A DNA stretch of 64,000 bases, taken from positions 1,488,707 through 1,552,706 of the forward strand of contig MU004197.1 in the NCBI GenBank assembly GCA_010093605.1, given 5' to 3'. Each line of letters starts with the position of its first letter. Position 1 is the stretch's first letter. Below the pieces are notes generated by a model, which was given only the letters and a program-made list of their open reading frames with translations, made no database searches and was not told the origin of the DNA. Positions 11,650 to 56,266 of this stretch are shown here, in pieces. Both the position numbers and the translations under genes were made by a program. This DNA is from Lophium mytilinum (taxonomy: Eukaryota).

Positions 11650-11870
11650 TATTATAGCTATAACGCGACCCTTATTATAATATATTTCTATTATAGGTAA
11701 TAGCGTTATATAGCCTCTATTACGTGCCACCGTTATCTAACTACGCTTAGCGCCAGCCTTACCTACCTCTCGGCCGGCGCTCCGCGCCCTACTCTCTCTT
11801 CTTATAGCTACTTTATTATATACTTAATACTATCTAGTTTTCTATTATAATTCTATATTATACTATAATA
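11650..11870 (+). repeat. 3' LTR
   Basis: Copy of 3591-3811, preceded by the purine tract at ~11638-11646 and followed by GTAAT. Confidence 0.95.
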
Positions 11871-24379: not shown

Positions 24380-24490
24380 CAAATAGTTTGGCACCTTTCT
24401 ATATTCTATTTATTATCTCGGGCATTTCAATTTTAGTCTTACATCTCCCATTCAATACTCCTGCATACACTCCCACCCCAGTCCAGCAAC

Positions 24491-28179: not shown

Positions 28180-30519
28180 CTACCACCACTGCCTCACACG
28201 GCGTTGGAGGTTGGAAACCCCCGAGGGCGCCTTGTAGTCCTGCGGTGGCACATACCCCCACGGCACAGCAGCAATCGGCACGACCGGCTCCTCCATCTGC
28301 GGCACGAGACCATATGGCCCCTCTACTGCCTGAACAGGGACGAAGCGTGGCTCCTCCATCGCCTGAATAGGAACGAAGCGTTGTTGCTGCATCTGCGGCA
28401 TAACACCATGGGGCCGCTCCGCCGCCTGATTAGCGACATACTGCCGCTGTCGCTGCACCATCTGCATCCGCTCTACGTACTCGTCCTGCTCAACACCCCA
28501 ATAGAAAGGGTTGGGAGGCGTCGCGGGCGCGGTGACGAAGGGGTCAGGAGGAGTGGGATTGTACGGGTCTGAAAACGGGTGCGCGGTCATCGAGACGGCA
28601 GGGCGCATGGAGCCCCAGCCCGGAGCCTTTACGGCACGTCGGGGAGGTAGTGGAATGCCCGGGATAGTGACGTGAGGGGGGGAGTAGCGGGTAGAGGGAG
28701 TGGGTGGGTTGAGGCGCGAGGGGCGCACGAAGCGTGGCGCGCGGTTTGCGCGGACCTTGGTGGAGGGGCATGGTGTGGGTGGCAGAGAGTCGTAATCCTT
28801 CACCCATCCGACTGGCCCATTGTTCTTCATATTGAGAACAAGTCCGCGCGCTGGTGGGATAGTAAGGCTGTAGGAAGGTGGGTTGGCTGCTCCGCCGACC
28901 GTGGGCTCGTGCGTGATGAAGGGGTCGTCGAGGCCTTCAAGCCCGTGGCTCGCCAAGCTGGGGTCAAAGTACTGGGCTGGAACGGCCTTGGTGGCCTTGA
29001 TTGGAATGGGCTCGCCGGTCTCAGCGTTGGCTGTGGCCTTGGCGGCCTCCTTTGCGACGCGAGCCTTGAACCAGCCCTGGTTATCTAGACGATCGCTGGA
29101 AGACGGCGGGTGGGCCTCGTCATGCGACGCCACGGCCTCGATCCTAGGAAGAACTAGAGCGGGTTCGGCCTCGTCCAGCTCAGCCGGAGCATGAGCCTCC
29201 TCGGCGTTGGAGGAACCATAGAATATGGCAGCGATTTTGGGATCGATATCCCCAATTTCTTTGAGATCGGTTTCCTCAGGCTCGGAGATCGCAATCGCGC
29301 TTAGCCCAAGGATTGAAGACACGTCAGAACAGGCGTCGTCGTCATCATGTGTGTCGTCTTCCGCCTCCTCGTTTCCGGTCATCCACGCTTCGACAACCTC
29401 ATCACAATTCGACGACCTCTTGGGAAGCGCGCCCAGGAACCAGCGCTTCAACGGACGGACGTAGACCTTCTCAGTTCGGTCATCATGCGCAAGAAGCAAC
29501 TCGTTTTGCTCCTCCCAGAGCTCATTGTACCGAGTTTCCCAGCACAAGGCGAGACGTTCGTTTTCTTCATAGTTGTCGGCGAGCATCTGGTCTCGGTCTT
29601 CCTTGAGATCATTCACCTCCTTTTTGAGGCAGGCGATTTCTTCGCGAGCGTCCTTCATCTGGGCACCTCGGATACTATACAACTCCTCTTGGAAACCCAA
29701 TTCGTCTTCGTGATGTTCCTTCCAGAACTTGGTGAGGCGTTGAATCAATTCGTCTCGAGGTTCCTCTTCCTTGAGATCATTCACCTCTTTTTCGAGGCAG
29801 GCCACCTCATCCTGGGCATCGTCCAGCGCTTCAGCCAGAGCGTTCGCGCGGCCCGCATTCATGGCAGCTTCTTCCTGCGCAGTCTTCGCGTTTTGTTGGA
29901 CTTCTGCGAGAAGACGTTGCAGCGCGGTGATTTTGGCATCCTTGGTGGCCGATTCTTCTCGCATCGCGTTGTTGTGTCCGGCGTGAATGATAGCCTCTTC
30001 TTTCTTCTCTTTGGCATTCTGCTCGGCGGCCTTGACAAGGTCGCGCAGGATCTGGACTTCACCTTCGAGCTCGTAGGCGTACGTGGCGTTGTATGCGAAA
30101 GGACGAGACAGCAGCATAGCTACAGCAGATACGGAAGAGGCGGATGAAGGAAGGCGGTGATGGGGAGGGGACCAGAGGCTAGATCGCACCGCGTTCTTCG
30201 ACGAATTGGTGGAGTCCTGGCGGGGGGACGCACCCATGGCTTGAAGCGCCAGCCGAACATCTACAGGATTCTTGGTTAGCCAATGCGGGTTTGTGCTGTC
30301 TATGCAGTTAGAAGGCCACTTACTTCGCTCGGCAATCTTCTCTACTGCCCTGGAATAGATAAGTCCAGTCTGGTCGACGGCGGCTTTGGCAGAAGTCGCA
30401 GTCGTGCCGCTCATATTTGGACTTTTCTTCGGCGATGGGCGAGGACCAGTTTCATACAAGCCGACAGAAGCGAGGTACGCGACTACCTCATCGGGTGGTT
30501 GACGGTTGGCGCTCGACAT
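28180..30519 (-). CDS. Array gene A: orphan, N-terminal helix motif + coiled coil + Pro-rich tail
   Basis: Long ORF; likely start MSSANRQ at 30519; predicted 63-nt intron 30261-30323 (GTAAGT, GCTAAC, TAG); heptad-rich middle; paralogous to B. Confidence 0.8.
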   Translation of the reverse strand: MSSANRQPPDEVVAYLASVGLYETGPRPSPKKSPNMSGTTATSAKAAVDQTGLIYSRAVEKIAERSKWPSNCIDSTNPHWLTKNPVDVRLALQAMGASPRQDSTNSSKNAVRSSLWSPPHHRLPSSASSVSAVAMLLSRPFAYNATYAYELEGEVQILRDLVKAAEQNAKEKKEEAIIHAGHNNAMREESATKDAKITALQRLLAEVQQNAKTAQEEAAMNAGRANALAEALDDAQDEVACLEKEVNDLKEEEPRDELIQRLTKFWKEHHEDELGFQEELYSIRGAQMKDAREEIACLKKEVNDLKEDRDQMLADNYEENERLALCWETRYNELWEEQNELLLAHDDRTEKVYVRPLKRWFLGALPKRSSNCDEVVEAWMTGNEEAEDDTHDDDDACSDVSSILGLSAIAISEPEETDLKEIGDIDPKIAAIFYGSSNAEEAHAPAELDEAEPALVLPRIEAVASHDEAHPPSSSDRLDNQGWFKARVAKEAAKATANAETGEPIPIKATKAVPAQYFDPSLASHGLEGLDDPFITHEPTVGGAANPPSYSLTIPPARGLVLNMKNNGPVGWVKDYDSLPPTPCPSTKVRANRAPRFVRPSRLNPPTPSTRYSPPHVTIPGIPLPPRRAVKAPGWGSMRPAVSMTAHPFSDPYNPTPPDPFVTAPATPPNPFYWGVEQDEYVERMQMVQRQRQYVANQAAERPHGVMPQMQQQRFVPIQAMEEPRFVPVQAVEGPYGLVPQMEEPVVPIAAVPWGYVPPQDYKAPSGVSNLQRRVRQWW

Positions 30520-31369: not shown

Positions 31370-33469
31370 TCACAGGTGCCGCTGCGAAGAAGGTACTGCG
31401 ACGGGTGCAGCAATTGGCGCTGTGATGATGGTGCTCCTTTCGAACCCGATGGGGACACGGTATGGGCTACCAAAGGCGCTGACTTGAACCCGTCCATTTG
31501 CTCGTTGCTTGATCCGCTCTGCTTTTGAGGTCTGGCTACCACGAGAGCTGGTAAATGTGGACACGATGGGTTGACGGTTGCGTGCCCGGCCAAGATTGAT
31601 AGCATAGCTGCTCATTTGATAGGCAGTCTCGAGCCTCTCTACCGACCATGCCTCATCGGTGCGGGATGGTAGTTTTGGAACCATAGGAAGCTCCGAGCGG
31701 TCCGGAGGGTAGGTATCATACCGAGGGGGAAAGGCAGGTGGAGCTGAAGACGGAGATAGAGGAGGAGATGGAGGAGGAGCGGGAACAGGAGAGCAAGGAG
31801 CAGATGGCATGGACATGGCGTCGATATACGCGTTCGCGTCATAGAGCTGATCATGCCCAGGCAGCCTGGGGCGGACATGTTCTGCCTCAGCTTGCGCTGC
31901 CTCGCGACGCTCCTTTTCGGAGGCCTCTTCGTCCAGCTTCTCAAAGTGTTCCCTGATAATGTCGGGGACGTCCAGACCTTCAACAATCGGGTTGCGCCAC
32001 TGCCAGAATTGCAAGAGCAACTCGTTTTGCTCCATGATGCCGTTGCGTTCTTTCTGGGTCAATGGAGTCGCTGGACGCATGGGGCCAGTGTATGGGGCGT
32101 CACCTGTCGTCAAGACTTGCACACGGCCGTACTTGGCGACCGGCAGGCAATTTTCGACGGTGTAGCCGATTGGGAGATTGTCATAATTCTCGGTCTCCAA
32201 AAGCTGAACCACCTTCGGTTTCGGAATGACTGGCTCTTGATCTCGGCGCAAGCATTGAACTAAATCCCAATGTGCTCCGGTCGTACGCATGACCTCTGCA
32301 TGGTTGGAGACAACAAGGTTCTCGTTCTCGACCTGAAGGGTAGAGATTTGTTGTCGAAGCTGAGAAATCTCAAGATCTTTCTCGTCGATTTCTTGCTGCA
32401 TAACCGATGTCGCCTTATCATCGCTGATGGGTACACCAGCCAATGCCAGATCTGCACGATCCTTCTGCAACTTGTGTAGGCCCATGAACATCTGATTAGA
32501 CTTCCGAAGGCGTGCGTTCTCCTCGTCCTTCTCCTTCCGGAGCTTCGTCAAATCCTCTTCGAGGCCGCAGATCTCGTTTTGAACGTCTTCAAGTTCATCA
32601 CACTTGGCATTGAAGTGCCCCGCGCTCATGGTGAGTTGATCTTGCAGGTCGGAAATTTGCAGTGAGAATTCCTGGACCTGCCCTCGAAGTATAGCGAGTT
32701 CATTATCTTCCTCGTGCATCTTCTCTTGCATATGACCAATATGCGTGGTGCTGATGACCGCGTGCTCCTCATGCTCGCCCAATGTCTTCTTCAGTACCTC
32801 GAGTTGCTCATGAAGGAGCTGGACCGCTCCGTCCAGCTCGAAGATGTACCACATTGGCACGTCCGCAGGTGCTGAATGGTGGACGTTGCGAGCATGTTGA
32901 TGGTGGCTTTGTTGGTTGTCTGGTGGTGAATGTCCAGATCCGACGCCAGGGTCATGAGGTCGGCCCTGGTGGTTCGTGGGTACGTAGCCACGAACACGAG
33001 GATATGGCGGAGGGATGGCGACGGCCTCGTACTGGGGCTCGAGGAATAGAGATACAGACGAGGCCGACGACGGAGCGCACTGAACCGAGGACGAATTGGA
33101 ATCGGTCGCCACCGGGGAGGATCCGGTAGAGGATTGGATATAGATCGTATAGTTCGCCCCGTTCAAGATTGGCTCTAGGTCTGGATGATTGTCAGCGGAA
33201 GCGCGATCTGCACGATTATGAGGCGACCTACACTTCCTAGCTTCTTCGGCCACGGACTCTTTGTACATCTTTGCAGTGGCTTGGACGGCCGCGGCGGAGA
33301 GACCGCTATCACCTCCTATCGTTGGGTGATGCTGGCGCTGGCGCTGACGACCTCCTACAAGCTGTGAGACAAAGCGGCAATCAATGTTTCGTCCACGAGT
33401 TGACTTACTGAAGGCATCTGCAACGGGCTGGGAAGCCGCACGGCGATCAGCAGCATGGGAACGCGACAT
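31370..33469 (-). CDS. Array gene B: orphan, N-terminal helix motif + coiled coil + Pro-rich tail
   Basis: 699-aa ORF; predicted 51-nt intron 33181-33231 (GTAGGT, GCTGAC, CAG); shares ELxGxVQ, AGxxNA and EQNELLL with A. Confidence 0.8.
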   Translation of the reverse strand: MSRSHAADRRAASQPVADAFSKSTRGRNIDCRFVSQLVGGRQRQRQHHPTIGGDSGLSAAAVQATAKMYKESVAEEARKCRSPHNRADRASADNHPDLEPILNGANYTIYIQSSTGSSPVATDSNSSSVQCAPSSASSVSLFLEPQYEAVAIPPPYPRVRGYVPTNHQGRPHDPGVGSGHSPPDNQQSHHQHARNVHHSAPADVPMWYIFELDGAVQLLHEQLEVLKKTLGEHEEHAVISTTHIGHMQEKMHEEDNELAILRGQVQEFSLQISDLQDQLTMSAGHFNAKCDELEDVQNEICGLEEDLTKLRKEKDEENARLRKSNQMFMGLHKLQKDRADLALAGVPISDDKATSVMQQEIDEKDLEISQLRQQISTLQVENENLVVSNHAEVMRTTGAHWDLVQCLRRDQEPVIPKPKVVQLLETENYDNLPIGYTVENCLPVAKYGRVQVLTTGDAPYTGPMRPATPLTQKERNGIMEQNELLLQFWQWRNPIVEGLDVPDIIREHFEKLDEEASEKERREAAQAEAEHVRPRLPGHDQLYDANAYIDAMSMPSAPCSPVPAPPPSPPLSPSSAPPAFPPRYDTYPPDRSELPMVPKLPSRTDEAWSVERLETAYQMSSYAINLGRARNRQPIVSTFTSSRGSQTSKAERIKQRANGRVQVSAFGSPYRVPIGFERSTIITAPIAAPVAVPSSQRHL

Positions 33470-35216: not shown

Positions 35217-35752
35217 ATGGCTGTCGGCGGCTGTTTCTGCGGGCACGTTCGAGTCGAATATAATGGTCAACCTCTGACATCGGCTAGTAAACCCCGGGAT
35301 TCAGTGCTTCGGTGAACTTACCTAATTTGATTTTCCTTCAGGTACTCTGCCACTGTCACGATTGTCGTAAGCTTACCGGGTCACCCTACACGTACAACTT
35401 CGTCGTCAAAACCGCAGATCTAAAGATCTCCGGAAGTCCGAAAGAAGTGCCAAAAACAGCGGACAGTGGAAATCCTATCAAGAACTATTTCTGTCCTGAC
35501 TGTGGTTAGTATTACCAGATTGAACTTGAGAAGGAAGTTTTGACGAAATTGCTAGGCACGCCGCTTTTTGGACACAAGATCAAATCTGACGGAGAACCTG
35601 ACGATACTACGGTCGTCCGAGCAGGAATATTTGATGACGACGGGATTTTGAATGAACGGAAACCTGAGGCAGAGATTTACACTGATAGACGACTGGAGTG
35701 GTTAAGTCCCGTCGAGGGGGCTGCGCAAATTATCGGTTATCCGCAAACTTGA
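35217..35752 (+). CDS. GFA / Mss4-like zinc-binding protein
   Basis: GGCFCGHVR, LCHCHDCRK, YFCPDCGTPLF, PEAEIYT..RLEW; two introns, the first apparently GC-AG (35283-35341). Confidence 0.88.
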
Positions 35753-36501: not shown

Positions 36502-38867
36502 TCAGAAGAAACGAGATTTCGGCGGTAGGGGGCCCGGAGGACTCGCCATGCCCGGTGCAGTAGGTGGGGCCATAGGTGCTTGTGCAAATAGCGAGCTGAT
36601 TGGAAGTCCCGAGAATCCCAATCCGTTCACCCGTCCGCATCCAGGGGTAGCACCTTGTCCACCGACAGTAGGTGCCGGACGGCTAGTGCCAGTGACGCCG
36701 TTGTCCAAGGACCCTGGGTGTCCGCCGGAGATAGAGACTGGGCGCATTGTTCCAGTTGCCGGACCAAGAGAATCGAAAGAAAAGGTGTTGTATTGCGCAG
36801 GGCGGTGGGTGGCCCCGAAGTCCCCGGAGCAGTCCCCGTCTGGGAGAGTATCTGCAAGAAGGTCATTAGCCACAGGGCGTCCAGCCCCGAATCCAATGGC
36901 CGCTGCGCGAGGGGCACCAAATGGGTTGAAAGCGGCCTGGGAGCGATAGTTGTGTGTAATCGCGGTGCGGACGTTTCCAAAAGCAGTGGGAGGCTCAACA
37001 TCCGGCACTGCGTCTGCGTTGAGATTGGCAAGTGCAAATTGTTGTTGGTGAAGGTTGCCCGAGGGGAAGGCGAGGGCTGGTGCGGGCATTTGGATCGCGG
37101 CGTGATGTGTGGCATGATCGGTGGTAAGGGTGTTAGGGATACTGCCGGGAGCGATGATGTCGGCGACAACTTCGCTATACTGTGACTGGGACTCAGCCCC
37201 ATACGGGAGGCGGTCCTGATGCTCCTGCTGGGTGATGTTGTGCTGGATAGCGTCGGGAGACGTGATAGGAACGGGCAGGTCGGAGACTTTCATGGTGTCC
37301 TGAATAGCATCACGAACCTCATTCGTGGTATCTTCTTCTGGATCAGCACCTGCAACAGCGTCCTGTTTCGGCTTAGCATCCTCTCCTGGCTCAGCTTTTG
37401 CAGCCGCAGCCTCCTCTTGCGTGACGATGATAGAGTCGGTGATAGAGCTAACTGCGCTCTCGGTCAGTTCATGCTCCGATTCCTGACGTTCGCCGTCCCT
37501 CAGTCGCTTAGCAAGGGTAGGGGTATTATGGTAGGTGAAGTCGTCCCCAGGGGCGGGACGGGGTGCGACGTTCCAGATCACCACAGGATCCTCTTTTCCG
37601 GCATGATCTCGCTGACGAAGCTGCTCCCACAGCTCCACGATCTGCTCTTGTTGCTTCGCTTTCTCCTGATTCAGCTCCGCGAGTTGTTCATTCTGTTCAT
37701 TGACTTGCTGCCGAAGCTCGCGCATTTCCACGCGGCCCTCCACCAGCTGTTGACGATACCTCGTCACCACCTTCACGACGCCTTCCTTCTTCTCCGAGAG
37801 TGTCAGCTCACCCACGGATAGCTCGGTGTCGTCGTCCTGATTGTAGCAGCAGTCTTTGATCTGGTCCTCCAATTCGTCGACCAAGTCCTGCAGGTCGTTA
37901 ACGTTTTGGATGTTGGCGTTAGCCAGCTTCAGGTTTTTGTCTGCTTTCTTCTTCAGCTTGCCACACTTGGCCTCCAGCGCCGGGCAACGTGGGCACATGG
38001 GCGGCACCGGCTCTTCCTCATTCTTTGAGACGGATTGATGGCCGTCTCGGATAGGGGTCTGAGACTCGTAGCTGCGTTCCTTGTCGGGTGATGGTGGTGC
38101 AATAACAATGGTCTTGGTCTCGGGTTTGTCCTTGGTTCCAGGGCAGACTTCGTTGACGACATGAATAGTGTCCGTAGTATTGACTACGGACGAGCGCGGG
38201 TTCTCGTTGCCTATACCATCATCGATTAGAGAGACCAGGGTGAGCTCATGTTGATTGTATTGCGTACCCTGTGGTAGACCAGACTGAGGGGTGTCCGGAT
38301 CCAAGACGCGTATGCGCTCTCCCTCCTCTGGTGAATGATCGTAAGAAGGAGGTGCAGTCGCTGACGACGGGGGCTTTGGGGAGCTTGTGCCAGAGCTAGG
38401 CTGAGGAGTGGACTCCGTGGTGACTGTAGCGGATGCGCCGAGAATGGAAAGGTATTCGGACACGTCTATGTTTCCTGTTAGATCAAGTTGAACTGTAGTA
38501 GGGGATGGGGCTTACGTTTGGAGACTTCTTTCTTCACGCATTCTTCTACCAGGGAGCTCTGCTTCAATACTTCCTCCCTCACGAACTTATCTACCAAGAA
38601 ACCAATGCCCTGGCGCGCGGCAGGAGTGAAAATATCGGCAGAGCTCTGTTGATTTTCTGCTCGTTGGGCCGCTGCGATACGCGCCTCCATGACTTCCGAC
38701 ATAATGCTCACTACCTCTTGCGTATGGTATGGATGGGACGTAAGCAATTCCCGGCCCAACATCTTGGCTTTGCGTTGTCGAGGAGGGGGGACGTTCATAT
38801 TCTGCGACTTTGCGATGTCGTGCGGGAAATCTAGTGGGATAGAAGAAGAGAAGCTAGAAGAAGACAT
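36502..38867 (-). CDS. Array gene C: orphan, coiled coil + disordered Gly/Pro-rich tail
   Basis: ORFs 38478-38906 and 36502-38463 are joined by a 50-nt intron 38466-38515 (GTAAGC, CTAAC, TAG). Post-intron HVSEYLSILGAS resembles A's NVRLALQAMGAS. Confidence 0.75.
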
Positions 38868-39698: not shown

Positions 39699-41969
39699 CT
39701 AGAGTTCATCCTCATCGCTCTTATCTTCTGTCTCTTCGTCAGACTCTTCGCCATGGCTCTCATACTCCGTCTCTCCGGCAGACTCTTCATCATCGCTCTC
39801 AAATTCTGTCTCTTGGGCAGACTCTTTACCATCGCCCTCTTCTTCCACTTGTTCCTCCTCCAGCTCTTCATTGTTCGCCTCCATGTGCTCCTCCGACGGC
39901 GTCTCAGTACTTCCCTTCACTTCGGGCCCGTCGTAGGCTTTGTAGCCCGTCGGTTTATATCCCTTGTAGATGGCTGGATTGACAATCTTGTGCCTCGCTT
40001 TATCCATTCCCGAAAGGATTATGTCGAGCAATTTAGAGATCTCTTCTGCCGAATACTCTTCATTCGATCCGTAGCCCCCAGAGACTATTTCACGCGCAAT
40101 GTTCTCTTTGTTGCTGAGCAAGAGTCGCAGGCGTTCCTGCAGACGTTCTTGCTCTCTCGGCGTTGAGTCCTTCACGTCCTCAGCATCCCTGAACCAGCCG
40201 ATTCCACCACGGAGGGCCAATGGGTCATCGAAAGGAGCAGGATCAGCATCTGGATCCGGGTCGTTGTCCGGATCATGCGATGGAGGGGAGGGGAATTCGC
40301 GGCCGAATTGGATGAACGAAGACACCTCCTGAGCAACCTCCTCATCAAGCCCCTTCAGGTAATCGACTGTGTCCCGCTCATCGATTTCCTCCTCTAACTT
40401 GTCTTGCATGTAGTTAGATTCCGGACCGAGCTCAACCTTAGCAACGTCGAGGAAGCCTTGGAAGTCTTCCAAGTACCCCTTCCAGCGCTCGGCCTCCTTC
40501 GTCTTTTCTTCAAGTTGCTCATTCCTATCCGCCAACATTGCCCGGAATAAGCGAACCTCGGAACGGATGCGCCTCAACGCGGTCTTCGCCTCCGCCCGCT
40601 CTTCTAGGAACAGCGCGGTTTGGGCGTTTGCCTCATGGATAATGTGATGTTTCTCGTGATCCATCTTCTGGTGGTCTTTAGCGAGGAAGTCGCACGCCTT
40701 GTCGCATTCGCGAAGCTCTTTCTTGAGCTCATCGTTCTCCTTCTTCAGCTGATCTTTCTCCTTCCTCAGTCGAGTGTAGTGACCTCTCAGCTCGCGTAGC
40801 TCGACGGGCGCTCCCGGCCTTGGCAACTTTGCGAAGCTTGCGCGGAGTGCGTCTTCCTGCTCTTCCTCAATCGCCTTCGCTTGCAGTATCTCGTCCACTT
40901 TGGCTTTAGCTGCCAGCGCATCAGCCGTCTCTTTCCTGGCCGTGATGAGTTCCTCTTGAAGAGCGTCATATTTGGCTTTTGTGACTAGCGCCTCGCGAAG
41001 GACATCGGAGTTGTCGCAGGCGAGAGGAGTACTAGCGGTGATGGAAGATGGAGGGGTATCGATACTAGGTCGAGGGCGAACATTGCCAGTATCTAGACGT
41101 CCAGCAGTATTAGTAATGAAAAACGAGACTTGCGGTCTGCTATGGGCTAATGCTTACCGATTATAGCGGAGTCCACAGCCTTACCAAGAGTGAACGGAGA
41201 CGCTGACATCGAGGCGCCCTGCTTTTGTGAAACCGAGCTGCATGGGCCCAGGCTCGACGTGTTTGAGGACGTATCGCTTCCATTTCCCGGTGAAGTCGGG
41301 CGAGACTGTACAGAAGACTGACTAGCCGCAGAAAATGGGGGAAGCCACTGATGGTCGCGATAGTCGGAGGGTATATTAGGGGGTGTATTCGAGGGAGTGG
41401 CTACGCTTCCACGCAACTGGCGAAGCAGTCGGACTTCAAGTGCCTCGGGGGGTGAGGGGGTGTTCTTCCTGAGTTCGCGACGAAGCCGCGCCTCCAGAGA
41501 CTCTCCTAGCTCTGTTCAGTCCCATAGATGTTGACAATGATTGCGTGGAACACTTACCAATGTGCAGCATTGCCTTCAGCTGCTCAGCAGGATGATCTGA
41601 TACAGCTGATGGCGGCTGAGCTTTAGTCCGGTAAGCTGGCGGCTCATCCATGGGGCGGCGCATGGCCTGGGTCCCTTGGAAAGGAGGCATCGATACGTTT
41701 GGGGCTGAGGATGTTGCTGGCGCGTCCCCAAATTGAAGACGAGTTCCAGAGGTAGTGGTAGACGGATGAATAGCCTCGATGGCGTCGTGGAGGTTGAGAC
41801 CGCTTGGAAAGTGACGCATCAAGAAGTTGTCGTCTACGATAGCTGCTGACCGGAAGGTAGGCTGGAGCATGGATGCTGGAGGAGGACGAGCAGCCTGAGC
41901 GGCGCGATGCTCCGCCGCCATCGCAGCCGCTGCGTTGAACCGGGGGTACGCGGGAGCAATAAATGACAT
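39699..41969 (-). CDS. Array gene D: orphan, coiled coil + acidic repeat tail
   Basis: Introns at ~41512-41557 and ~41094-41157 (alternative donor possible) join ORFs 41436-41999, 41147-41416 and 39699-40898; the tail has ~13-aa E/D/S repeats. Confidence 0.7.
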
Positions 41970-43605: not shown

Positions 43606-44789
43606 CTATGAGTCGGACGAATCATACTCTTTGTCCTCATCGTAGTACCTGTCCACGCTCCATCTCCGGCATAGCGTCGATCTGTGATAAACCTCCCTCT
43701 CGGGTTTGCCATCGAATCCGATCGTCAGGCGATCAGCCATGCTTTGTCCTTCGGAAGGTAGAGGCGCTTGCTCTTTGTTGACCGGACTATCCACAGAAAG
43801 GCTTCGCATATCAGACTGTGAACTCTTGTTTTCGTCGAGCTTGGTGTGTTCAGATAGGAGAGTATGGGAAGTATCCTTGACCGCGTCAATCTCCTGGGGC
43901 TCGGTTCCGAAGAGTGTTTCGGAATGGGGTTGCTGTTGAGGAAGATGTGCCGCAGAATGAGCCCTGGATGATTGTTTGATTGCAGCGGTCACAATATCGT
44001 TAAGAGTTTCCTCGGCATCCATCTCCTTATTCAAGGCGTCCGCGAGATCTCGCTCAGCTCCATCGTGCTGGCGCATAGTCTCTTGGACACCATCAGCTGA
44101 TGTGGAGGGCAGTGGTTGGAACTTCAAGTTAACAGCATGGAGGTCAATTACTGCATGAGCAGGCGCGCGATCGAGCGAGTTCGCCTGCGCCTTCATTGGA
44201 GCGAAAGAGCAAGCTCTTGGGTTGAGAAGTGAAGTCGAAGCTTTGGGTCGTACACTCTCAGCGTGGATATCGTCGTTGGTCGAATGATTCATGCCAGGCA
44301 TGAAGGGACCGTCGAGATGGACTATACATAAGTGAATCAGTATATGATAATAGCGTGATATTTAGTATGCTACTTACGGTCTTTCGGCGGAAGCTTCAAG
44401 TCCTTGTCCGTCTTCGCCAAGAATTCAGCTATGGATAGCTGTCTGAGGCTTGAAGACGACGGAGTAGCTTCAGCGGCGCTGTCCTGAGAGGCTGATTCCG
44501 CTAGTGCTGATGTCGACGTGGACGAAGGACGCGTGGAAGGGGTTGACTCAGCGCATCGGCCGCGAGCGCGATAGTCAGTCTGGTGAATGGAAGAAGCAGA
44601 TGTAGCATCTTCGTCTTCTTCAGCAACTTGAATCAACGCTACATCAAGAATGATCAGCTTGGGGGGAGGAAACGTCAGCCTAGAGGCGAAGTTACCTTGG
44701 TAGGCTAGACTTTCGATCGCCTTCTGGAATCGACCACTCGTGTATCGAACGAGTGCCGGAGGGAGCTTCTCGCACGTGGTGGGCGGCAT
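43606..44789 (-). CDS. Array gene E: orphan, N-terminal helix motif + disordered region (possibly C-terminally truncated)
   Basis: Predicted introns 44639-44695 (57 nt) and ~44322-44376 give one frame; it ends at a TAG followed by more acidic coding-like sequence. Confidence 0.65.
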
Positions 44790-46299: not shown

Positions 46300-49200
46300 T
46301 TAATTTGCCTTCGCTCTCCTAGCAGCATTGTGCGAGCTCTGATTATCACACAGCACCACCGTGTGCTTTGCAGCTTCCTTTCTACGCTGCTGCACCGCTG
46401 CAATATGGGCAGTGTCTGACTTCGCCATGTCGACTCCCCAGTTGCTCCAAGTACTGTTCGGAGCAAGTCGCTCGGTGAGGGGTTTGCGGACAGTGGTGCG
46501 TCCGAGTGCTTCTGTCTTCGAGTAGTCGGAAGTTGTGAGGCAGGCTGGCGCGGCTCCACGCTGGGGTTTCGTGGTGGGTCGATTCATAGATGTGTTTGTG
46601 GTGTTTGCGCTCTTGCCCGAGCCTGGGGATTTCCGAAGTGGTGGTAGGCCTTGAGTGCCCTTGAAACCTGGAATAGAGGTTGAAACAGGGCGGGGTTTCC
46701 GGAAAGGGAGGGAGGAAGCCACCAAGCTCTGCTTTTTAGGTAGATCAGAGGTCGAAATAGACGCCTTAGCTTTGTGATTCGCAGGCGGAATATAGGTCTG
46801 AACAGTGGGACGAGCAGCCCTAGAACCAGTCTCAGCAGCCTTAGGCTGGGAGGTAAGAACTTTGGACTGGACAACCAGCTTCGGGGTAGACCTATCAGCA
46901 GTAGAAGAGGCAAGCTTGATGCCATACTTGGCACACTGATTATCGTAACGGCCTTTCTTGGGGCGTGCGGACTTCTTCTGTGTGAACTTCTTAGGCTGCG
47001 ACTTCACAACGGTAGCAGGTGCGGCAACGGGGATTGGCTTCTCTGAAGCCTTGGTGGAAGCGGGCGCTGATTTTGGCTCGCGAAGGTGAGGCGGGATGAG
47101 CCTGCGGGAAACTTGCTCAGAGGGAGTGAGAATCGGCTCACGCGACTTCTCTCCAGCTACGGAAGAGACGACTGGAGTAGAAGAAGAACTGCTGACGGAA
47201 TGGTTCCAGTCAGTGCTCTTCCCACTCTCCGAAGTGCTGTCATCAATGACGCTGTCGTGTTCTGAAGCCTCCTCGCACTTTTCAACAAGACGATGAGAGA
47301 ACTTCAGATTTTCGGGGACTTCGTTTGGCTGGAGTTTGGTATTCGACCCTTCCGGTACGGGCCTCAGAGAGCGTTGAAGCCATTGAAGATACCCCTCCGA
47401 GGAGACGGTGGCGGAGAGCCTCGCGAGGGGTAGAGAGGGTACCTCGTCATTAGGAGGATGAGATTCGCAAACAGGAGATATTGCCGCTGCAGGCAAGTCG
47501 ATGATTTCTTCTGGATCCTCTTCAAACGTCGGCTTATCGTCCCACAAAGTCATCGCACCTGGAGGGATGGCGTCCTCCACATCCTCCCACCAGTCAAAAC
47601 TGATGTATTTACGTAGTTCAAGCCTCTCAACATCCTCGGAGGCCACCACCATTTCGCGTGCTTGAACGGGTGCCACCAATTCTTCGTCGTCTTGCGCATC
47701 GCTAATGATGGATCCGCGGCCTGCTGGCTTTGAAAATCCACGTTTGTAAAAGTCTTCAACAGCTTTCCGGACTCCCCGACAGAGATCCTCTGGGATATCA
47801 TCAAGCAGGTCGCCGAGGAAATTATCGACTTTGGCGGTGAGAGAATAAACGACGGGGACTTTGGCTGAAGAGGAGACCTTGACGATTCCTTCTCCGTGGT
47901 CGAAGAACTCGGGAGTCGAGGCGGGGTGTAGAGTCTCGATGACTGAGACCGTGTCGATTCCGCACGCGGTGGGTTTAGAGCTGACTGGGTCATTTTTGGC
48001 TAACATATGACCAACGGAAGCCTCAAAGGCGGCCCCGTAGACATTCTCGAACGGCAAGGTCGTGGTGTCCTCTTGGCGAAGCGGTTCGTTTTTGGCTAAC
48101 ATTCGACCAATGGAAGCCTCGAAGGCGACCCCGTAGACATTCTCGAGAGGTAAGGTCGTAATCTGCTCTTGGCGAACCGGTCCATTTCTGGACAACATGT
48201 GGATCACGGAGTCCTTAAAGGCTGATCCGGAGAGGTTCTCAAACGGTAGGGATGTCAATGTATTGACCCGAACAGTGTTCAGGTTGGGCAGAGGATCTGT
48301 TATGCATGAGCATTACCATCAGAGAATTTGTGTCTATGTGACTTACCGAGCTGCACGATATACTCTTGAGTATTCTCTTCGACGGTGAGGTCAGTCTTGT
48401 TAGGCTGATGTGTGACAGCCTTTTTTTCCTCTTCGAGAGGGCCAAGTGGCTGGGAGCTCTCCTCGTGTTCCGTCTTCTCCTCAATCTTCGTCTCATGGAG
48501 ACCGAGATCGCAGACAACTTGTTTAAGGACGAGGTCGTCCTGGAGAGTCCCTATATGACCAGCCTCCCCATGAAGGTCCTCCTCGGTGTCGCCTCGAGAA
48601 AGCACGCAGACGGCAACATTTTGAGCCTCAGAGAGGCTGTCCTGGGATGCTTCGGTGGATACCACCATGGTGGGCTCGAGATCGTCATCATTCTCGACCG
48701 GGACGGCAGCTTTGGATTCTGCATAGTGTGTCAGTGCGATAGAGGAGAATACATAGTTTGCTAGCTTACCTTCACGAGCGTTGATCACATCCAGGGTCTC
48801 CACGGTTGTAATAGAGTCTTCATCTGATTCGTCCATTGTTAATGCACTGTACTGGACACCCAGTCCGAGGCTAAGCACTTACCTTCAGTGGGCGTAGAGG
48901 AGCGCTCTGTAGTATCCTCGGAGGATATTTCCCGGGCCAAGACGACGACTCGTTCTACGCACGAAGAACGGGAATCTTTAGAGCGAGTGATCTCCACTGG
49001 CACAAACTGTACCACTCCATGGAGAATTTCGGTCTCAGCTTTGGTTGCAGAAAGCTGCGCACGAGCAGTCTGGCTGCCAGTTTGCTCGACCTTGACCATG
49101 TCCGTCTGGATAGAAGTCTGCTTTGAGCGATCTCGAACATTGAGAGGCGTCGACTTCTCACGACACTTGGCCTTGGTCATGGAACGAAGAACATGCGCAA

Positions 49201-49528
49201 AAGATGCTAAGAGGAGGTTAGTTTTAGTGAATAGAAGTGAGTGAGAGGGATTCTTACAACTCTGAGAGAGCTTCTCAACAGCCTTATCATATTCTCTCAT
49301 GGTGTATGCCATCAATTCGGATGGCAAATGACCTGGGACTAGTAAGCTTCTACATCATGAAGACTGGTATGATTGGTGAAAGGCATTACCCTTCTTCATG
49401 GTCGAATCCTTGTGTTTCTTGCCAGGCTTGGGGTTGGAACGGTCTTTGGAGGAGGTAGGATTTGAAGAAGCCTCCACAATCATCTTGACAGGGGGAGTGA
49501 TAGGTGAGCGAGTGGAAGAAGTGGACAT
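46300..49528 (-). CDS. Array gene F: large disordered orphan with helix motif, 32-aa repeats, IPPHLR/YIPP motifs and basic tail
   Basis: Five GT-AG introns (including 49207-49257) join ORFs 48839-49327, 48300-48878 and 46300-48258 with a first exon MSTSSTR starting at 49528. Confidence 0.75.
47985..48260 (-). repeat. Three 96-bp (32-aa) coding tandem repeats in gene F
   Basis: TSLPFENLSGSAFKDSVIHMLSRNGPVRQEQI / TTLPLENVYGVAFEASIGRMLAKNEPLRQEDT / TTLPFENVYGAAFEASVGHMLAKNDPV. Confidence 0.92.
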
Positions 49529-51039
49529 GGTGGTTCAAGAGAAATTTGATATGAGACAGTCGACAATTCGGTTAGGAATTCCTGGCAGGAGACAGATATC
49601 AGTTTGCAGGAGGATCAAAATCTCCACGTCGGATGTTGAAAAGAAGCTGAGCTCGAGGAGAGGGAAGGGGTTTTGTATGCAAAGAGAGATCGGTGCACGG
49701 GCAAGTACCGTAGATGGTACCGCTCACGACCGTAGTAGGTACCGCCAGCGACCGCCAGCGACCGTAGATTGGACCGCAGAGTATGGAACGGCGAGCTCTC
49801 ATTGGTGGGGTACGAACAAGGAGGAGTGAAAGGTGGATTTGATAGTTGTTGCGGTACTTTACACGGTGAGATTCTTCAAAGTCGTGTGATAATGTTGATT
49901 ATTACCACTAACTTACAACAGGGAAACTAACTATGATGATTGTAGAAATCATGACTTTGCGTGGACATTGTCATCAACGCTGTCCGTCAGCTTATAAATG
50001 TATCATTCACTCGGTTCACCCTTGGTTGGAAAATATGTTTGACATCAAGGGGCTAGCAAATGTGAGCTTTGGTAGCGTCACGAGTTTGTCGGTTTGGGAC
50101 GTGTAATGAAAATTACAAGAAGTCGCAAGAAGAGGATACGCTGTGTGGAAATGATGTTTCGTAGCAAAGTCGGTAGCTTGTAACTCCTGGTTTTACAGCC
50201 GCTACATACATGATAGCGAGCGTCTTGATTTTAGACTTGCTGTACAGCAAGCTGAAATCTCTGACTAGCCATGTATCTAATAATTATCTCGTATCGTATG
50301 AGTGATTCTATACAGAGCCCGGGGAAAGATATTTTTCAACAAGATAGAATTGCACCAGCACAGCTATTTATAAAACAAACTATTGTTAACATAAGGCAAG
50401 GGAGGCAGTCATCAGGAGTAACTATATGTAGTGCAAAACCATAGGACGCATGAAGAAGCAAGAGTAGGGGCAGGCATCTATCAACCACTCTACTCTATAT
50501 ATACACGACGGGACAAACAGGCTCCCTAAAAGCAAACAATTTAGGTTTGCAAATGGAAAAGGTTTATGAGGAAGACTTATTGCCATATGAAAGCTAGCAC
50601 AGTGGTAAAATTCTAATGCATCCTCGTCTGTGTCTACGAAATCAAAACTTCACTCGTCTTCTCTTCCGCTTGTATCACTCAACTATGTTTCCATTCTACA
50701 GATATCGAAGTACTAACTTGCTGTCGCTTAATCCACATACGTAGAGAATAGACCGCGTGTCCCATTTGCTCTCTCTTTACCACCCCGATCTTCCTTGATA
50801 TACGTCAATCTGCTCGATCATACGCCACGAAGTATCATGAACATCCAAAGAATTGATTTGGAGTCATAGTTCTGCATATTGAAGACAAAGTTTGGTGAGA
50901 TTTGAGTACACCGATAATCATACGTTAATAATGCTACCTAAGGGCGTGAACAGCTACTAGAAAACAGGGACGCAGAACATTCCGTATTAAAGAGCCCCAT
51001 GAACAGGCAAAAGGAGCAGGCGAAGAAAGGCCAGTCGAT

Positions 51040-53415
51040 TCAGTCAGTCCACTCTGCGTCCTTGGTGTACCGAGTGTTGATGTCGTACTCAACCTTCTGC
51101 GGAATATACGAGGCCATCTTGGCTCTCACTTCTGCATCCTCACTCTGGAAGGCGCTCAACCAAGCAGCCCCGCGTTCTGTCTGCTGTCGCGGCCTGGCCT
51201 TTTTCGAGGCCGCCATCCTGTCTGCTTGGACCTTCGTCTGCTGAGCAGCCTTCTTGGTCATAGGGGCGGACTTCGTAGCAGCGACTGTCTTAGTCGCAGT
51301 AACTGTCTTCATAGTAGCGACGGGGCTCTTGTGGTGCGAAGCGGCACCAATGCGAGGACCCTTTGAATACTGGTGAGTGATGGGCTTGGTTGGGCAGTCT
51401 CGGGTCATATGACCCTTCTCCTCACACTGGAAGCATTTGCCCTCCTTCATCAGGCGAGCACGGCGCTCTTGGGACTGCTTAGGGTTCATTCGAGGACAGT
51501 TAACGTGACCTAGAGTGATCTTCGACGCCGAACCTGCGGGACGCGTCGTCAGGCTCGTTGACGGGGCGAGGGCTTCGTAGTCACGTACTGGTGGTGGAGC
51601 CGAGTCTGCCTCTGGGGTGGGCTTTGATGCGGGAGGAGAGATGGGATTGCCTTTCGTGACAACTGCCTCGGAAGCGGGCTCTAGAGGCAATACTGCAACC
51701 GGAGTCTTGACTTCGAGCGTCCTTGGTCGTACCCTCAAATTCGGAGGGATGTACATGGAGGAGGTCGGGCGCTTCTTGATGGGCTTCGAAGTGTACAAAG
51801 TAGCCAAGCTCTTCGTGTTCGTACCTTCGTCGACCGGGCTTAGATCTTTGGCCTCTACCGTTCCTTCATTGCTGGCATCTTCATGGAGAAGTGCTTCTTT
51901 ACCTTCAATGGAATTTTCCTCCACGACTGTCATATTGTAGTCAGAGATCTCCTGCTTAATCTTGGCAGAGACCGTCTCGATGGACTCTTGAGGAGCGTCT
52001 AGAGTTGAGGTCAAGATATCATGTACAGGAGTAGTTCGAACTCCTTTCTCGCCTTTGAGTTTAGCCTCTAAGTGGAGAGTAAGCAGTGGATCTACTGGAG
52101 GGGTAGAAGAAATGGCCTTTGTGGCTTTGGTGTCAAGAGACTGCTCGACTAGGGGGGACGACGGAATGATAGGCAAAATAGCTGCAGTGGTAGCCTCGCC
52201 TTCATTGGTAATCCTCTGTTCGGATTCGACCTCGAGAAGAGTGGCAAGAGAGCCGATCGGTGTTTTGACGCGAACAGGTTGAGAGACCGTCAAGATTAAT
52301 GCGGGAGTAGACGAGAGAGTAGAGATGACAATATTGTCCTCATGTAGGGAAACTTCCTCCGACGCAGAATCAGACTCTGGGGTGGATGTGTCCGCAAATT
52401 TCGGAGAATGAGTGGCGTCATTCGTAGCCTCATGGTCGCGGACCTGCGCAGTGTCATCTTGGCTGCTGAGCATTGAGTCAGCTAGCCGTGTTGTAGTAGC
52501 AGCGCATTGCTCAATTGGGGACAAGAGAAGTGGCTCGTCCTGCAGAACCACATCCTCGCCACATGAGACATCAATCCGCTCGTCTCGTCCGCTTTCAGAG
52601 CTTTTGATCAAGTTGCGTAAAACCATAATTGCGCGGTCCATTTCGTCCAGAGCATCGATTTGCCTGCGGACGACCAAGGCTGTGTCGTTAGAAGCGCTTT
52701 CCAGCCCTCTCCCACTCCCGGCATTGTCGTTGTCTAGTACATTTTGGTAGTATTTGATCTCTGCCATCTGCTCGCAGAACTTGGCGAAGCTGTGTTCGAG
52801 GCTGGCGGCCTTCGTCGTTTCGGATGATCCCAAATCGACTTTCTCAGTTTCCGGTGCTGCGATTTGGACCTCGACTGGTTGTCTATTGTGGCAATCCTTC
52901 GACATAGGAGGGTTTGCCGGAGATTGAGACATAGGTGCGGAAGTAGGCGAAGTCTCCTCCAGTACTGCAAATTGGCGAATTAGTACACTTCTCTGAAAAT
53001 GATCTCAGTTAAAAAGCTTACCAACTGCTACATCTTTATTCTCAACTATAGGCCGATTGGGTCTACCCATGCTGAGTAGAAGCGACAATGGAGACATTGA
53101 ACGAGGCAAGCGGGTCGCCTCCGGAGAGCTGGGCTCGGAAGACTTCGAAGACGTCTTCGAATTAGAGCTGAGACGGGACTTCGAAGAACCACGCGAAGAG
53201 TTCGGCTGAGAATCTTGCTTCTCAGCAGCTTCAGCAGCCTTAGATAGTAGATCTAGACACGCATTAGCAACAATGTCGAGTGAATCGAAAAGATAACAAG
53301 CGGTACCTTTCTTGGCTTTCTTGTCTTGCGCGCGCTGTAGACTGTTCCTAGTGATTAAAATAAGGGAAGTTGGGAGTCGAGAAATAGACGTTGGTGGACG
53401 GTGCGGAGAAGGCAT
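51040..53415 (-). CDS. Array gene G: disordered orphan with helix motif, YIPPNLR and CCHC zinc knuckle
   Basis: Start MPSPHRPP at 53415; introns 53253-53306 (54 nt) and ~52965-53021; CFQCEEKGHMTRDC at 51394-51435. Confidence 0.8.
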
Positions 53416-54152
53416 TGTGGCGAACAATGCAGAGCAAAAGGGTGTTGACAGATGGAAAGATACACTGGGCAGTTATAGGACACGCCAAAGACTTTTGGAA
53501 GCTCAGGGTGGTGGGGTGGGGTAAAAACTGTAGTGCAGTGTGTGTGTGAGGAAGGAATGTCGGTCGACGGTTCGATGAGGCATTTTGTAAATAGTAGCTC
53601 TGAGATCTTAGGGTCATGTGACCTAATTGGGCAGGTAGTGAATCGGTTGCCTTGCAGTTGTAGAAGGTCAACACGGTGGGAAGTAAACCACCATGTGACC
53701 ATTCATGGAGCTGATACCTAGGGTACTCCGCACAGTGCTATCTAGCCAGCAAGAAATGGGTCTAAGTACATCAATTCTTCGCTATCAGGTCTTATGCATT
53801 CTAAATACAGTGGAAAGGCTGATGAGCTGCGAATTAGACTCCCTCTTATCTATCCATGTACCGGCTAGCCAGTGCACTCCTTACAGTGGTATGAAGCGCA
53901 TAAGAGCAGAGCACAAGTAGTGAGTTATCCGCACGCCCAAATCTATGACCTAGTAATGTTTACAGAACCACCTCTTTGCAGATGGGAACACAGTGTATCG
54001 TGAGATTTTGTACATACATTGACGCTAAAGAAGCTAATATTAGTCTCTAAGCTGTTAGACAGAGTGTGAAGTAGAAAACACGAGGTTACCCTGGGGCCCT
54101 GTTGAACCGATCCCTTAAAACAACCACAACACAAAAGATGAAGAAAAAAGCC

Positions 54153-56266
54153 TTACTCAACCTTTCCACGGACCCAACCCATAAGGGTAGCACCATCAGT
54201 TCCGCCAGAAGAATACGGCGACTCGTCGTCCGAATCATCATCCACATAATCCTCGCCACATCGCTGAGCGTACCGTCTATCCTCAGCCTTCGCCTGGGCA
54301 GTCTTCTCCCTGACTACACCCAAACCAGCACCCTTAGGGCGAGTGTTGACCTCAATAGGGCCGAGAATACCTTCGCCTTCTTTGCCGAGGCCTTCGCCCT
54401 CTTTGTAGCCCATTTTCGCCATCAACTTCATTGTAAAAGCGCTCATTGCAGGTTTTTCCTCGATAGGTTTAGCTTTGGGTGGGAGGCGTTCGGACGAAGC
54501 GTGCATGCTCCGCGACAGGCCTTTGAAACCGGGCTGTGAACCTTCATTGGATACAACAGATTTGGAGACGCCCTTCAGAGTAAGCGGCGGAGATGGTGAT
54601 ATCCGCTTTTCGTTGCCGTACCTCAGATGAGGCGGAACACTAGCCTTCACAGCCTCAGAAGCTTCGTAAATCTTGGAAGGTGCTGGGGCAAACGCCGGCT
54701 TCCACGTCTGCGCTGGGCGTTGGAAGCTAGAAGAGGTGATCGTATCGTTTTGGCTGGTAGGAATTGGAGGCGAAGTAGGTTCAGAGGTGGTGTCCTGCGA
54801 GCAAAGCTCGGGCAGAGACAGCTGTTTTGGCGTTGTGGAAGCAATCTTCTTGGCCCAAGGCCTCAGATGCGGGGGTAAATACCGCGTGTCATCAAGCACC
54901 GCATTGAGCCGGGCGGTAGAGCGCTTGATCTCAGTCTTATAATCCACGCTATTGTCCGTGGTCTCAACGTCGAATCCACGTTCCGCCGTCACTGATCGGT
55001 TGGTAAAGCTATCGCTAGGCTGCGAGAGGTTTGTACCGTCGTGCAAGGTCGTAGAGAAGTCATCGGAGGAAACACTAGGAGTGGTGGTGTCCTCTGCCTG
55101 GCTATCCATGATTTCAGATGCTTGAGCAGAGATCTTGCCGATATGTTCCAGGTGCTCGACGTCAATAGAGATGGTGTCTTCCTGTTCAGCGCATTCGTGA
55201 TCAATGGCTAATTTGGATATCTCGATGTCGACACGGATATGTTCCGGCTGAAACCCCTCGCCTTCGACAGGCGTGGTCATTTCAGCCAGATTAGGGAGAG
55301 GATTTGACGGAAGTTCGGAGACTGCCGAAGAGTCATCAGTCGCTGTAAGAGTGTGAATTAGTACTAATGTACAAACCTGAAATCGGGGATACTGCTTACC
55401 CAATGCTGCAAGACGTTCGGAATCGGTCTTATTGTCGCTTTCAATATCCTCAGTAGAGGCCTGTTGGAGTGGCTCCTCGACCTTCGGTCTGTTTTCATCA
55501 TTGCCCTGCTGCGAACCAGAGTTCCTAGGGTAGATTGACCGCCCCGAGGAGAAAGATTGCTCCGAGGATGGCGTTGGAGAAGTTTCAGTTGGAGAAGTTT
55601 CAGTTGGAGAAGCTTCCGGCTCTTCTTCGTTAGTTGAGGATGATTCTCCTGCTTCCTCGTCATCGTCATCGGAAGCTTCAGCAAGCTGAAGAAGTGCTAC
55701 ATCGAGGATAGTTAGCACTGAAAATTTGGACGCAGGGTAGTCTGTTCCACCTTGCATGGCGATCTTATCGATGGCCTCGTCATAAGACTTCTGCACAAGC
55801 TTGACAAACTCTATCGGAAGGCCAACATCGCGACACAATATACCGAGGAGTGCCGAGGACGCGTCCTGCTCGCTTCCCTTTTCGAAAGCGGCAACAAGGA
55901 GAAGTACTGCGATCACAATGGTTAGAATAAATGATACAAAGGGGAGGCGACTGTACCTTTGATAAGAAGCCTCTCCACGGCTTTTTCGTAGGCCTTAGCC
56001 TGTGAACCAGCGGCAACGGGAGGGGCTCCGGCAGTCTGACGCATCATGCAGCGCTGAAACGTTGGATCTGCAATCTGTGAGCCCATGCGTAAGAGAAGCG
56101 CTTGTATTGACTAACTTTGAGAAAGATTCCACTTCGCAGAGAAGAAGCTAGTAGGGGAGTCCGGTAGGACGACGGACTCGCTTCGAGCAGCTGGCTCGAG
56201 CATATTGCCGAAGCGAATGGAGGCCAATCTGGCATCAACAACGCGCGAACTAGCAGAAAAGGGCAT
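54153..56266 (-). CDS. Array gene H: disordered orphan with two helix motifs, two PPHLR motifs and C-terminal G-patch
   Basis: Start MPFSASS at 56266; introns ~56068-56115, 55907-55956, 55697-55750 and ~55343-55399; G-patch KLMAKMGYKEGEGLGKEGEGILGPIEV..RPKGAGLG. Confidence 0.8.

Follow-up and report, generated by a model that had tools for sequence, protein, structure and literature searches.

What, if anything, unites eight consecutive genes that look like unrelated orphans? The question is raised by a 64,000-nucleotide (nt) stretch of contig MU004197.1 of Lophium mytilinum (the window, to which all coordinates and background scores given here refer), in which eight minus-strand genes, A to H, run in one direction from the stop codon of A at 28180 to the ATG of H at 56266. 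An earlier note on this DNA had proposed a hidden family sharing one block, and had described it as a diverged array with a constant helix and a variable remainder; both proposals hold, in that seven copies of the block score above all background windows (an eighth, in C, is weaker), block and intron are conserved, and the tails differ. A family comprising A, B, E, F, G and H, with C as a probable member, is very probably real. Our overall reading, to which we assign a probability of roughly 0.55, is that the array encodes a lineage-restricted, exon-shuffled family of disordered, RNA-linked adaptor proteins.

The shared block is a minus-strand stretch of 23 codons, present once each in A (30325-30393), B (33233-33301), E (44697-44765), F (49259-49327) and G (53308-53376), twice in H (H1, 55958-56026; H2, 55752-55820), and in weak form in C (38517-38585). 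All eight block peptides quoted in the earlier note are exact minus-strand translations at these positions. The consensus of the module, over ~23 residues, is LPxxΦxxxTxxxYx[KR]A[VI]E[KR][LI]xxx, and in E, G, H1 and H2 the module runs on past the following intron as xLLxxAE and an acidic run; the closest copies are those of E, G and H2. Described at first as N-terminal, the block does lie near the N-terminus, not at the very end, starting at residue 9 to 116 of the gene models.

Each copy was compared, leave-one-out and by ungapped BLOSUM62 sum-of-pairs, with every six-frame 23-mer of the window, the sister copy within H also being excluded. None of 48,508 background windows reaches the score of A, B, E, F, G, H1 or H2, and 35 of 48,508 reach that of C; a sampled version of the same test had given z values of 4.8-6.3 for the seven copies and 3.0 for C. 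The similarity extends across subgroups: scored against a matrix of E, F, G, H1 and H2, A and B are each equalled by 1 of 48,326 background windows and C by 228, and in the reverse test the five E-H copies are equalled by 1-9 of 48,326. Because the peptides could have been aligned on the first introns by the reader who proposed them, we also built an intron-anchored null from 109 candidate phase-1 introns (45-74 nt, both strands, with 23 open codons before and 40 after), against which the eight members stand out with scores of 138-294 (self included), no other candidate exceeding -41. MAFFT, applied to longer contiguous translations and not supplied with the intron position, places the blocks of A, B, E, F, G, H1 and H2, together with that of P0002, a public protein related to H, in one register. 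As judged from sequence, the seven copies are secure and C is probably a member.

Conservation of the intron is equally regular. In all eight copies one base separates the block from a GT donor, after which come a CTRAY-like branch site 13-20 nt before the acceptor and then YAG, in agreement with the proposed GT-AG intron at phase 1 of codon 24; the spliced frames stay open for 82-693 codons. Excision is required for the reading frame in C (38466..38515, 50 nt) and H1 (55907..55956, 50 nt). The other six module introns, likewise in phase 1 on the minus strand, are stop-free multiples of three: those of A (30261..30323, 63 nt) and B (33181..33231, 51 nt) are placed by splice signals and homologous position only, as are those of E (44639..44695, 57 nt) and F (49207..49257, 51 nt) by the same two kinds of evidence; that of G (53253..53306, 54 nt) is absent from the public protein P0151; and P0002 is without the residues that the H2 intron (55697..55750, 54 nt) would encode. 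Three of the eight (G, H1 and H2) thus have support from outside the window. The G model with both introns removed is the 754-residue P0151 letter for letter, and P0002 is continuous across the H1 junction, reading ..K-A-LLLVAA.. where H needs the 50-nt excision. A contig of run X1, the kind of which is guessed to be RNA, joins 55342 to 55400, skipping 57 nt with minus-strand GT..AG ends that correspond to the fourth intron of H; within 36501-56500 the run covers 54040-55683, short of all module introns, and also yields two 44-nt pieces near 43254-43318 with four mismatches each.

In an alignment of the eight module introns, only those of E and H2 share a similar 3' end. Their last 20 bases (44639-44658 and 55697-55716, respectively) are alike at 16 of 20 positions, from branch site to acceptor, and the first exon bases that follow share TTGCTGAAG, where G has CTGCTGAAG. 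The read-through open reading frame (ORF) of E matches H by blastp at 1.2e-6, a value raised by this likeness of the intron ends when they are read through.

The number of module introns that can be translated exceeds expectation: six of eight are stop-free multiples of three, for a null mean of 1.28, and none of 5000 simulations reaches six. Among all 18 modelled introns of the array, 11 are multiples of three and 8 of those lack an in-frame stop (null mean 2.66, P 0.002). Three of these eight stop-free introns (G1, H2 and the X1 joint) have outside support as real introns, so the excess is not simply miscalled coding sequence; it may mean that retention, harmless or useful, has been selected for, or that the introns arose from coding sequence. 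Retention would not destroy the protein, since six of the eight module introns are stop-free multiples of three. A bolder reading, which we consider improbable, treats the module intron as a retention switch: retained, it would insert 17-21 residues into the helix and so toggle between forms able and unable to dock, and the array would be a rare fungal family built, and still remodelled, by exon shuffling that also brought in, from a spliceosome-disassembly factor, the end that activates a helicase.

Structure models suggest what the module may be. In the AlphaFold2 model of G, made from a shallow alignment, a helix spans residues 16-49 with a predicted local distance difference test score (pLDDT) of 80-96, running through the exon junction at 36/37, and 496 of 754 residues fall below 50. 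The model of P0002 has helices at residues 2-15, 21-30 and 35-61 with pLDDT 72-85, the last of which (84, 85 and 78 by block) spans the junction, and 138 of 290 residues below 50. The two halves of the module are accordingly predicted to join across the exon junction into an unbroken helix of 27-34 residues, and on these models the module is best described as a long helix in the N-terminal region of a protein that is mostly disordered; mean pLDDT in two ESM Atlas models is 0.41 and 0.43. Foldseek comparison of the P0002 model with the PDB gives a best E of 3.1, among generic three-helix matches; for P0002 residues 1-75 the ESM Atlas structure matches (TM 0.46-0.70) are to small helical bundles, and such values have little meaning at this length; and ESM Atlas feature matches for G are all below 0.8.

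The module intron is one part of a uniform gene structure. All 18 modelled introns are in phase 1 (one in A, two in B, one in C, two in D, two in E, four in F, two in G and four in H). Besides the module introns these comprise, all on the minus strand, B1 (33355..33408; splice signals only), two in D (41506-41557 and 41093-41157), one in E (44322-44377) and three in F (49333-49389, 48824-48882 and 48297-48346) taken from the gene models, one in G (52965-53021) that is absent from P0151, and two in H, at 56068-56115 (splice signals only) and at 55343-55399 (skipped by the run X1 contig). Control introns in flanking genes are in phase 1 in two of eight cases (Rpt2-like proteasome ATPase 0, 0, 1; short-chain dehydrogenase 1, 2; Ubc1-like 0, 2; ARMT1-like 2), which differs from 18 of 18 with a one-sided Fisher probability of 1.2e-4. 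The best-supported introns, nine being needed for frame or stop removal and the other three having support from P0151, P0002 and X1, respectively, are in phase 1 in 12 of 12 cases (about 7e-4 against 2/8 by our own arithmetic). Copies of one ancestral intron are not independent, which brings the real count of events closer to 10. An excess of phase 0 introns is among the results given for Neurospora genomes (PMC4317165). Because each modelled intron is in phase 1, all 10 internal exons are symmetric and could be duplicated, skipped, lost or swapped without breaking the frame. This is the pattern that exon shuffling calls for: introns of the same phase lie on both sides, and the block is common to proteins with no other similarity above controls.

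The eight models, built by hand, have frames open over 356-1003 codons and intact splice signals, and their outer limits coincide with the span given in the earlier note; their products form one polar composition class in which S, T, P, G, Q and N make up 32-41% of each protein. Gene A (28180..30519, 758 aa, one intron) has its block at residues 43-65, a long helical or coiled-coil-like region and a proline-rich tail. Gene B (31370..33469, 664 aa, two introns) has its block at residues 39-61 and weak, sub-threshold Pfam coiled-coil matches (ATG16, 24 bits against a cut-off of 33.7), and gene C (36502..38867, 771 aa, one intron) has the weakest block at residues 95-117. Gene D (39699..41969, 717 aa, two phase-1 introns) carries no block and has an acidic tail, encoded at its 3' end (39706-39846) by 39-nt periodic repeats. 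Gene E (43606..44789, 356 aa, two introns) has its block at residues 9-31 and gene F (46300..49528, 1003 aa, four introns) at residues 49-71; F also holds three head-to-tail 96-nt (32-residue) repeats at 47987-48274, the later two 84% and 60% identical to the first, which are an internal expansion within its large exon. Gene G (51040..53415, 754 aa, two introns) has its block at residues 14-36, and gene H (54153..56266, 634 aa, four introns) has two, at residues 64-86 and 116-138. Beyond the module, A-D consist of long helical or coiled-coil-like regions, and E-H of disordered tails with differing small modules.

Two further claims do not survive. D had been credited with a weak match to the block, and its intron-anchored 23-mer scores -109, a value that 23% of all windows equal or better; its best window anywhere scores 13, about chance for 695 tries, and it has no blastp match to any member at E up to 0.1. 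D is ruled out as a sequence member by these chance-level block scores and belongs to the array by position, strand, gene structure and intron phase only. Nor is the promoter that D was said to share with the others apparent among exact words in the 600 nt upstream of the eight starts: the most widespread 7-mers occur in five of eight regions, which 9 of 100 shuffles match, and words longer than 7 do no better than shuffles. Similarity outside the block is evident for A and B, which match by blastp at 8e-15 over 188 aa of the helical region, above reversed-sequence controls. Matches of 10-mers between members, with top scores of at most 39, lie within the shuffle range of 34-42, and single short matches were dropped unless they contained YxPP.

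What the tails contain bears on function. The C-terminal end of H (54156..54500, minus strand) resembles the N-terminal end of TFIP11/Ntr1-type proteins and includes a G-patch (~54312-54446; Pfam PF01585, 54.2 bits against a cut-off of 22, E 1.3e-14, residues 522-560 of the 613-residue ORF). The view that no known domain is present therefore stands for the block, which has no Pfam match, and fails for H, with its G-patch, and perhaps for G, with a doubtful CCHC knuckle. The G-patch of H is closest to that of the TFIP11/Ntr1 (Spp382) family: this end is 57-67% identical to P0003, P0004 and P0008, reaching 76% over 51 aa with residues 2-52 of P0004, and the similarity pairs the final ~95 residues of H with the beginning of such proteins, from their initiator Met-Ser, with Met-Ser at the corresponding place in H. 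The best full-length matches carry the G-patch at their own N-terminus, and all five that were tested (P0003, P0004, P0008, P0009 and P0010) add GCFC and one adds TIP_N, the combination of G-patch and GCFC (with TIP_N) being the TFIP11/Ntr1 architecture. The H ORF is without GCFC in a Pfam search at E up to 0.01, and its frame ends ~50 codons past the G-patch. H would thus have arisen when a duplicated TFIP11/Ntr1-type gene was joined, by its 5' end, to a module-bearing gene; by analogy it is at most like a G-patch helicase cofactor, and it is not a TFIP11 orthologue.

In G, a C-x2-C-x4-H-x4-C knuckle at 51394-51435 has the spacing of zf-CCHC (PF00098) and scores 19.3 bits, below the cut-off of 20.8; by phmmer it matches a retroviral nucleocapsid chain at E 2.8e-4. 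Short YxPPxLR motifs recur in the tails, all on the minus strand: YIPPNLR in G (51733-51753) and YLPPHLR in H (54861-54881) match the published expression, SVPPHLR in H (54621-54641) and LIPPHLR and YIPPANH in F (47080-47100 and 46774-46794) are near-matches, and A has two YxPP sites. Shuffles lead one to expect 0.0185 occurrences of YxPPx[ILMVA][KR] for the two observed, which none of 2000 shuffles reaches, 0.30 of xPPxL[KR] for the four observed, and 0.75 of YxPP for the five observed. The G motif (residue ~518) lies in a region of pLDDT below 50. Sequences of the YxPPxΦ[KR] class (ELM LIG_eIF4E_2) are listed for the translation-linked proteins DDX3X/Ded1, eIF2A, eIF3g, NOM1 and TDRD3 (PMC3510515), in accounts that leave direct eIF4E binding open and the partner debated (PMC3510515, PMC11251518).

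Taken together, these features suggest a history and, more tentatively, a function. Similar members adjoin, A by B and E-H together, and for this reason we infer that the array grew by whole-gene tandem duplication; exon duplication and fusion would have been added later, and long divergence would have left the module alone recognisable. Origin by duplication and exon shuffling is rather likely. The module may serve as a shared docking or assembly helix that brings different tails to one partner or place, and the recognised tails would be RNA-directed (the G-patch of H, the CCHC knuckle of G and the YxPPxLR motifs), beside the long helical scaffolds of A-D. The G-patch of Ntr1 activates the DEAH helicase Prp43, and the prediction for H is a cofactor role, in recruiting a Prp43-type DEAH helicase or competing for one. 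A run X1 contig with a spliced joint covers 54040-55683, which may point to expression of H. An RNA-adaptor role, argued by analogy, is possible and stays on the doubtful side of even.

How narrowly the family is distributed can be gauged from database searches. A HMMER scan with the H ORF of 1.84 billion representative sequences gave 517 matches at E up to 0.001, of which 150 were listed; among the 150 matches listed, P0002 alone has its best stretch outside residues 399-612 of the query. P0002 (290 aa) is a relative of the N-terminal part of H (E 4.4e-27, 40% identity) and keeps 31-40% identity over the disordered part. That the array is lineage-specific, as first suggested, is borne out by this one N-terminal relative of H among the listed matches and by the lack of a Pfam entry for the block. 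Pfam searches at E up to 10 gave nothing relevant for P0002 or for N-terminal stretches of E, F, G and H, the last being the exon that lies between the two module introns. A word-based protein search with the first 500 residues of the H ORF gave no match among targets of 337-1073 aa, a range that misses both the G-patch and the 290-aa P0002; the same kind of search with P0002 gave none among longer proteins and, with G, returned the identical public protein only. Metagenome scans with P0002 and with a P0002/H alignment gave no confirmed locus. The family is new and narrow, having no Pfam family and no solved fold at E <3, in work that included no literature search aimed at it. Full-length H itself was not found among the 1.84 billion representatives, in which only its end occurs, as an identical fragment of 85 residues (P0001); the public annotation may lack H or divide it.

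Could the block be a chance resemblance, charged helical N-terminal stretches having been lined up by a reader on their first introns? C is weak in each test, and a motif hidden Markov model (HMM), which had been proposed as a check, is of divided help: slid leave-one-out over 80,254 six-frame residues of the window, it ranks first only E, F, H1 and H2 (7.5-9.5 bits), puts A seventh and does not recover B, C or G, and the block evidence for B and G depends on the fixed register given by the intron. Against chance stand the seven of eight copies that exceed every other window, the wide gap between the members and the other candidates among the 109 introns scanned, the register that MAFFT found unaided, and the cross-group tests. 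For A, B, E, F, G, H1 and H2 the chance reading is not sustained, and we give it almost no credence. The failure of the HMM is nonetheless one of several points that weigh against a single exon-shuffled, RNA-linked family. Blastp matches between A and C (0.004), B and C (0.08) and E and G (0.04) do not go beyond the best reversed match (6e-5), so that whole-gene paralogy of A-D with E-H rests on 23 residues and one intron. The phase comparison uses a control set of just 8 introns, read by eye from conserved protein continuity with a ninth left out as unplaceable, and six of the 18 array introns (A1, B1, B2, E1, F2 and H0) are placed by splice signals only, five of them being readable through. 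P0002, which supports both H junctions, is itself a predicted protein. The hydrophobic moment of the module lies within that of shuffles (P 0.16-0.62), for which reason we do not call it amphipathic, and the functional argument draws on three small modules in three of eight genes, with no known partner.

The same evidence admits other histories. Only a 5' cassette, the module exon with its phase-1 intron, might have spread by exon shuffling or gene conversion among unrelated neighbours: significant similarity between A-D and E-H is limited to the block, phase 1 throughout is the condition for shuffling, H combines a doubled module with the fused end of a foreign gene, and the introns of E and H2 are alike in DNA sequence at their 3' ends. 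Tandem duplication, on the other hand, predicts that similar members adjoin, as do A and B over 188 aa and F, G and H with their YxPPxLR-type motifs; the eight genes are co-oriented and of one composition class; and the distance from block to start varies and an upstream intron is present or not, so that there is no single uniform cassette. We consider this history unlikely. A still lower estimate applies to the conflict system (drive, allorecognition or defence) proposed in the earlier note, in which a constant N-terminal effector or interaction helix would be combined with variable recognition parts. Such a system would suit a tandem, fast-diverging, lineage-restricted array with, 14 kb off, a repeat block heavily resembling the product of repeat-induced point mutation, but no HET, HeLo, Goodbye, SesA, NACHT/NB-ARC, WD/ANK/TPR repeat, nuclease or toxin family was found in 14 ORFs (E up to 0.01; N-terminal ORFs up to 10), the recognisable parts are RNA-linked modules of housekeeping type, and the flanking genes (GST, ARMT1-like, Ubc1-like and proteasome ATPase) are ordinary. 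The alternative of an RNA-granule scaffold, offered beside it, agrees better with the RNA-linked modules and is still inferred. Old tandem duplicates decaying without present function, with the block as a last remnant, would explain the extreme divergence, the mostly disordered predictions of ESM Atlas and AlphaFold2 alike, and the recovery of full-length H from the searched library as a short identical fragment only; against this, all eight frames are open with splice signals intact, H is covered by a spliced run X1 contig, a relative holds its identity with H over the disordered part, and the motifs are enriched over shuffles, and we regard decay as very improbable.

The array lies in an otherwise ordinary setting. 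The window is fungal in character, with introns of 48-67 nt and CTRAY-type branch sites; the protein of gene G is the public record 'hypothetical protein BU16DRAFT_566664 [Lophium mytilinum]' (P0151), and a database lookup places the species in the Dothideomycetes, order Mytilinidiales. The array is flanked on one side by a glutathione S-transferase (GST) gene (24437-25165, plus strand) and an ARMT1-like phosphatase gene (~25.7-27.2 kb, plus strand), and on the other by a gene for a Ubc1-like E2 with a UBA domain (~57.7-58.8 kb, minus strand) and a proteasome AAA ATPase gene (~59.4-61.1 kb, plus strand). In the ARMT1-like gene, a second intron at 26170-26235 is without a placeable GT donor, and a GC-AG intron of ~57 nt would restore the expected continuity of the protein. 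Positions 1-13000 are AT-rich (guanine plus cytosine (GC) content 0.29) and strongly resemble the product of repeat-induced point mutation (RIP), with TpA/ApT of 1.83 and (CpA+TpG)/(ApC+GpT) of 0.18; the array has ratios of 0.76 and 1.17, and the window outside 1-13000 has 0.69-0.76 and 1.12-1.20. Judged by the customary RIP thresholds for both dinucleotide ratios, this block probably consists of degraded repeats. A 429-aa ORF follows at 13362-14651 and has no Pfam match. Upstream of the array stands a second tandem pair of paralogues (18779-19942 and 21192-22352, minus strand; blastp 1.6e-35), with sub-threshold BTB/POZ matches only (E 0.07 and 0.006) and no relation to the helix family by the block HMM. 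Within the array, the gap between B and C (33500-36500) is unusually long at ~3 kb, has a lower GC content of 0.447, and contains no ORF of at least 100 codons and no RIP-like ratios.

Fungal orphan genes are usually dismissed as unrelated and unexplained, and this locus indicates that a conserved intron position and a 23-residue block can unite eight seemingly unrelated ones. The array would be a compact natural example of gene assembly in a fungus, in which genes are copied in tandem, a symmetric exon is doubled and an essential splicing-factor gene contributes its 5' end by fusion. Should the uniform phase and the translatable module introns be borne out by RNA data, it would offer a test system for exon shuffling in fungi with tiny introns and for intron retention that yields alternative proteins rather than only silencing transcripts. 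Practical value is modest, and the species is little studied.

Comparison with known systems places the array among familiar processes in an unfamiliar combination. Introner-like elements, described from the same class, Dothideomycetes, as introns recurring in several genes, are near-identical, and the eight module introns are not, with 4 of 187 alignment columns invariant across introns and flanks; inheritance by gene duplication fits better than insertion because the introns lie at one homologous codon of a homologous block. Fungal STAND/NLR proteins (HeLo, Goodbye, SesA) share with the array just a constant N-terminus, a variable remainder and lineage specificity, and the array is without such a Pfam family, NOD or repeats. 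TFIP11/Ntr1 (Spp382) proteins have an N-terminal G-patch and GCFC, whereas the G-patch of H is C-terminal, behind two modules and ~380 disordered residues. Proteins of the YxPPxΦ[KR] class resemble G and H, which match the expression exactly in regions predicted to be disordered, and share no homology with them outside the motif. The closest parallel in gene structure is with the exon-shuffled 1-1 modules of animal multidomain proteins: here too all introns are in phase 1, the module is duplicated in H and a foreign gene end is fused. Unlike those, the array belongs to a fungus with introns of 48-65 nt, its genes form one local cluster instead of being spread genome-wide, and its module consists of one helix that an intron interrupts, rather than a folded domain with introns at its borders. 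The events that would have built the family (tandem duplication, symmetric-exon shuffling and gene fusion) are each known, and it is their combination that is unusual in a fungus with tiny introns.

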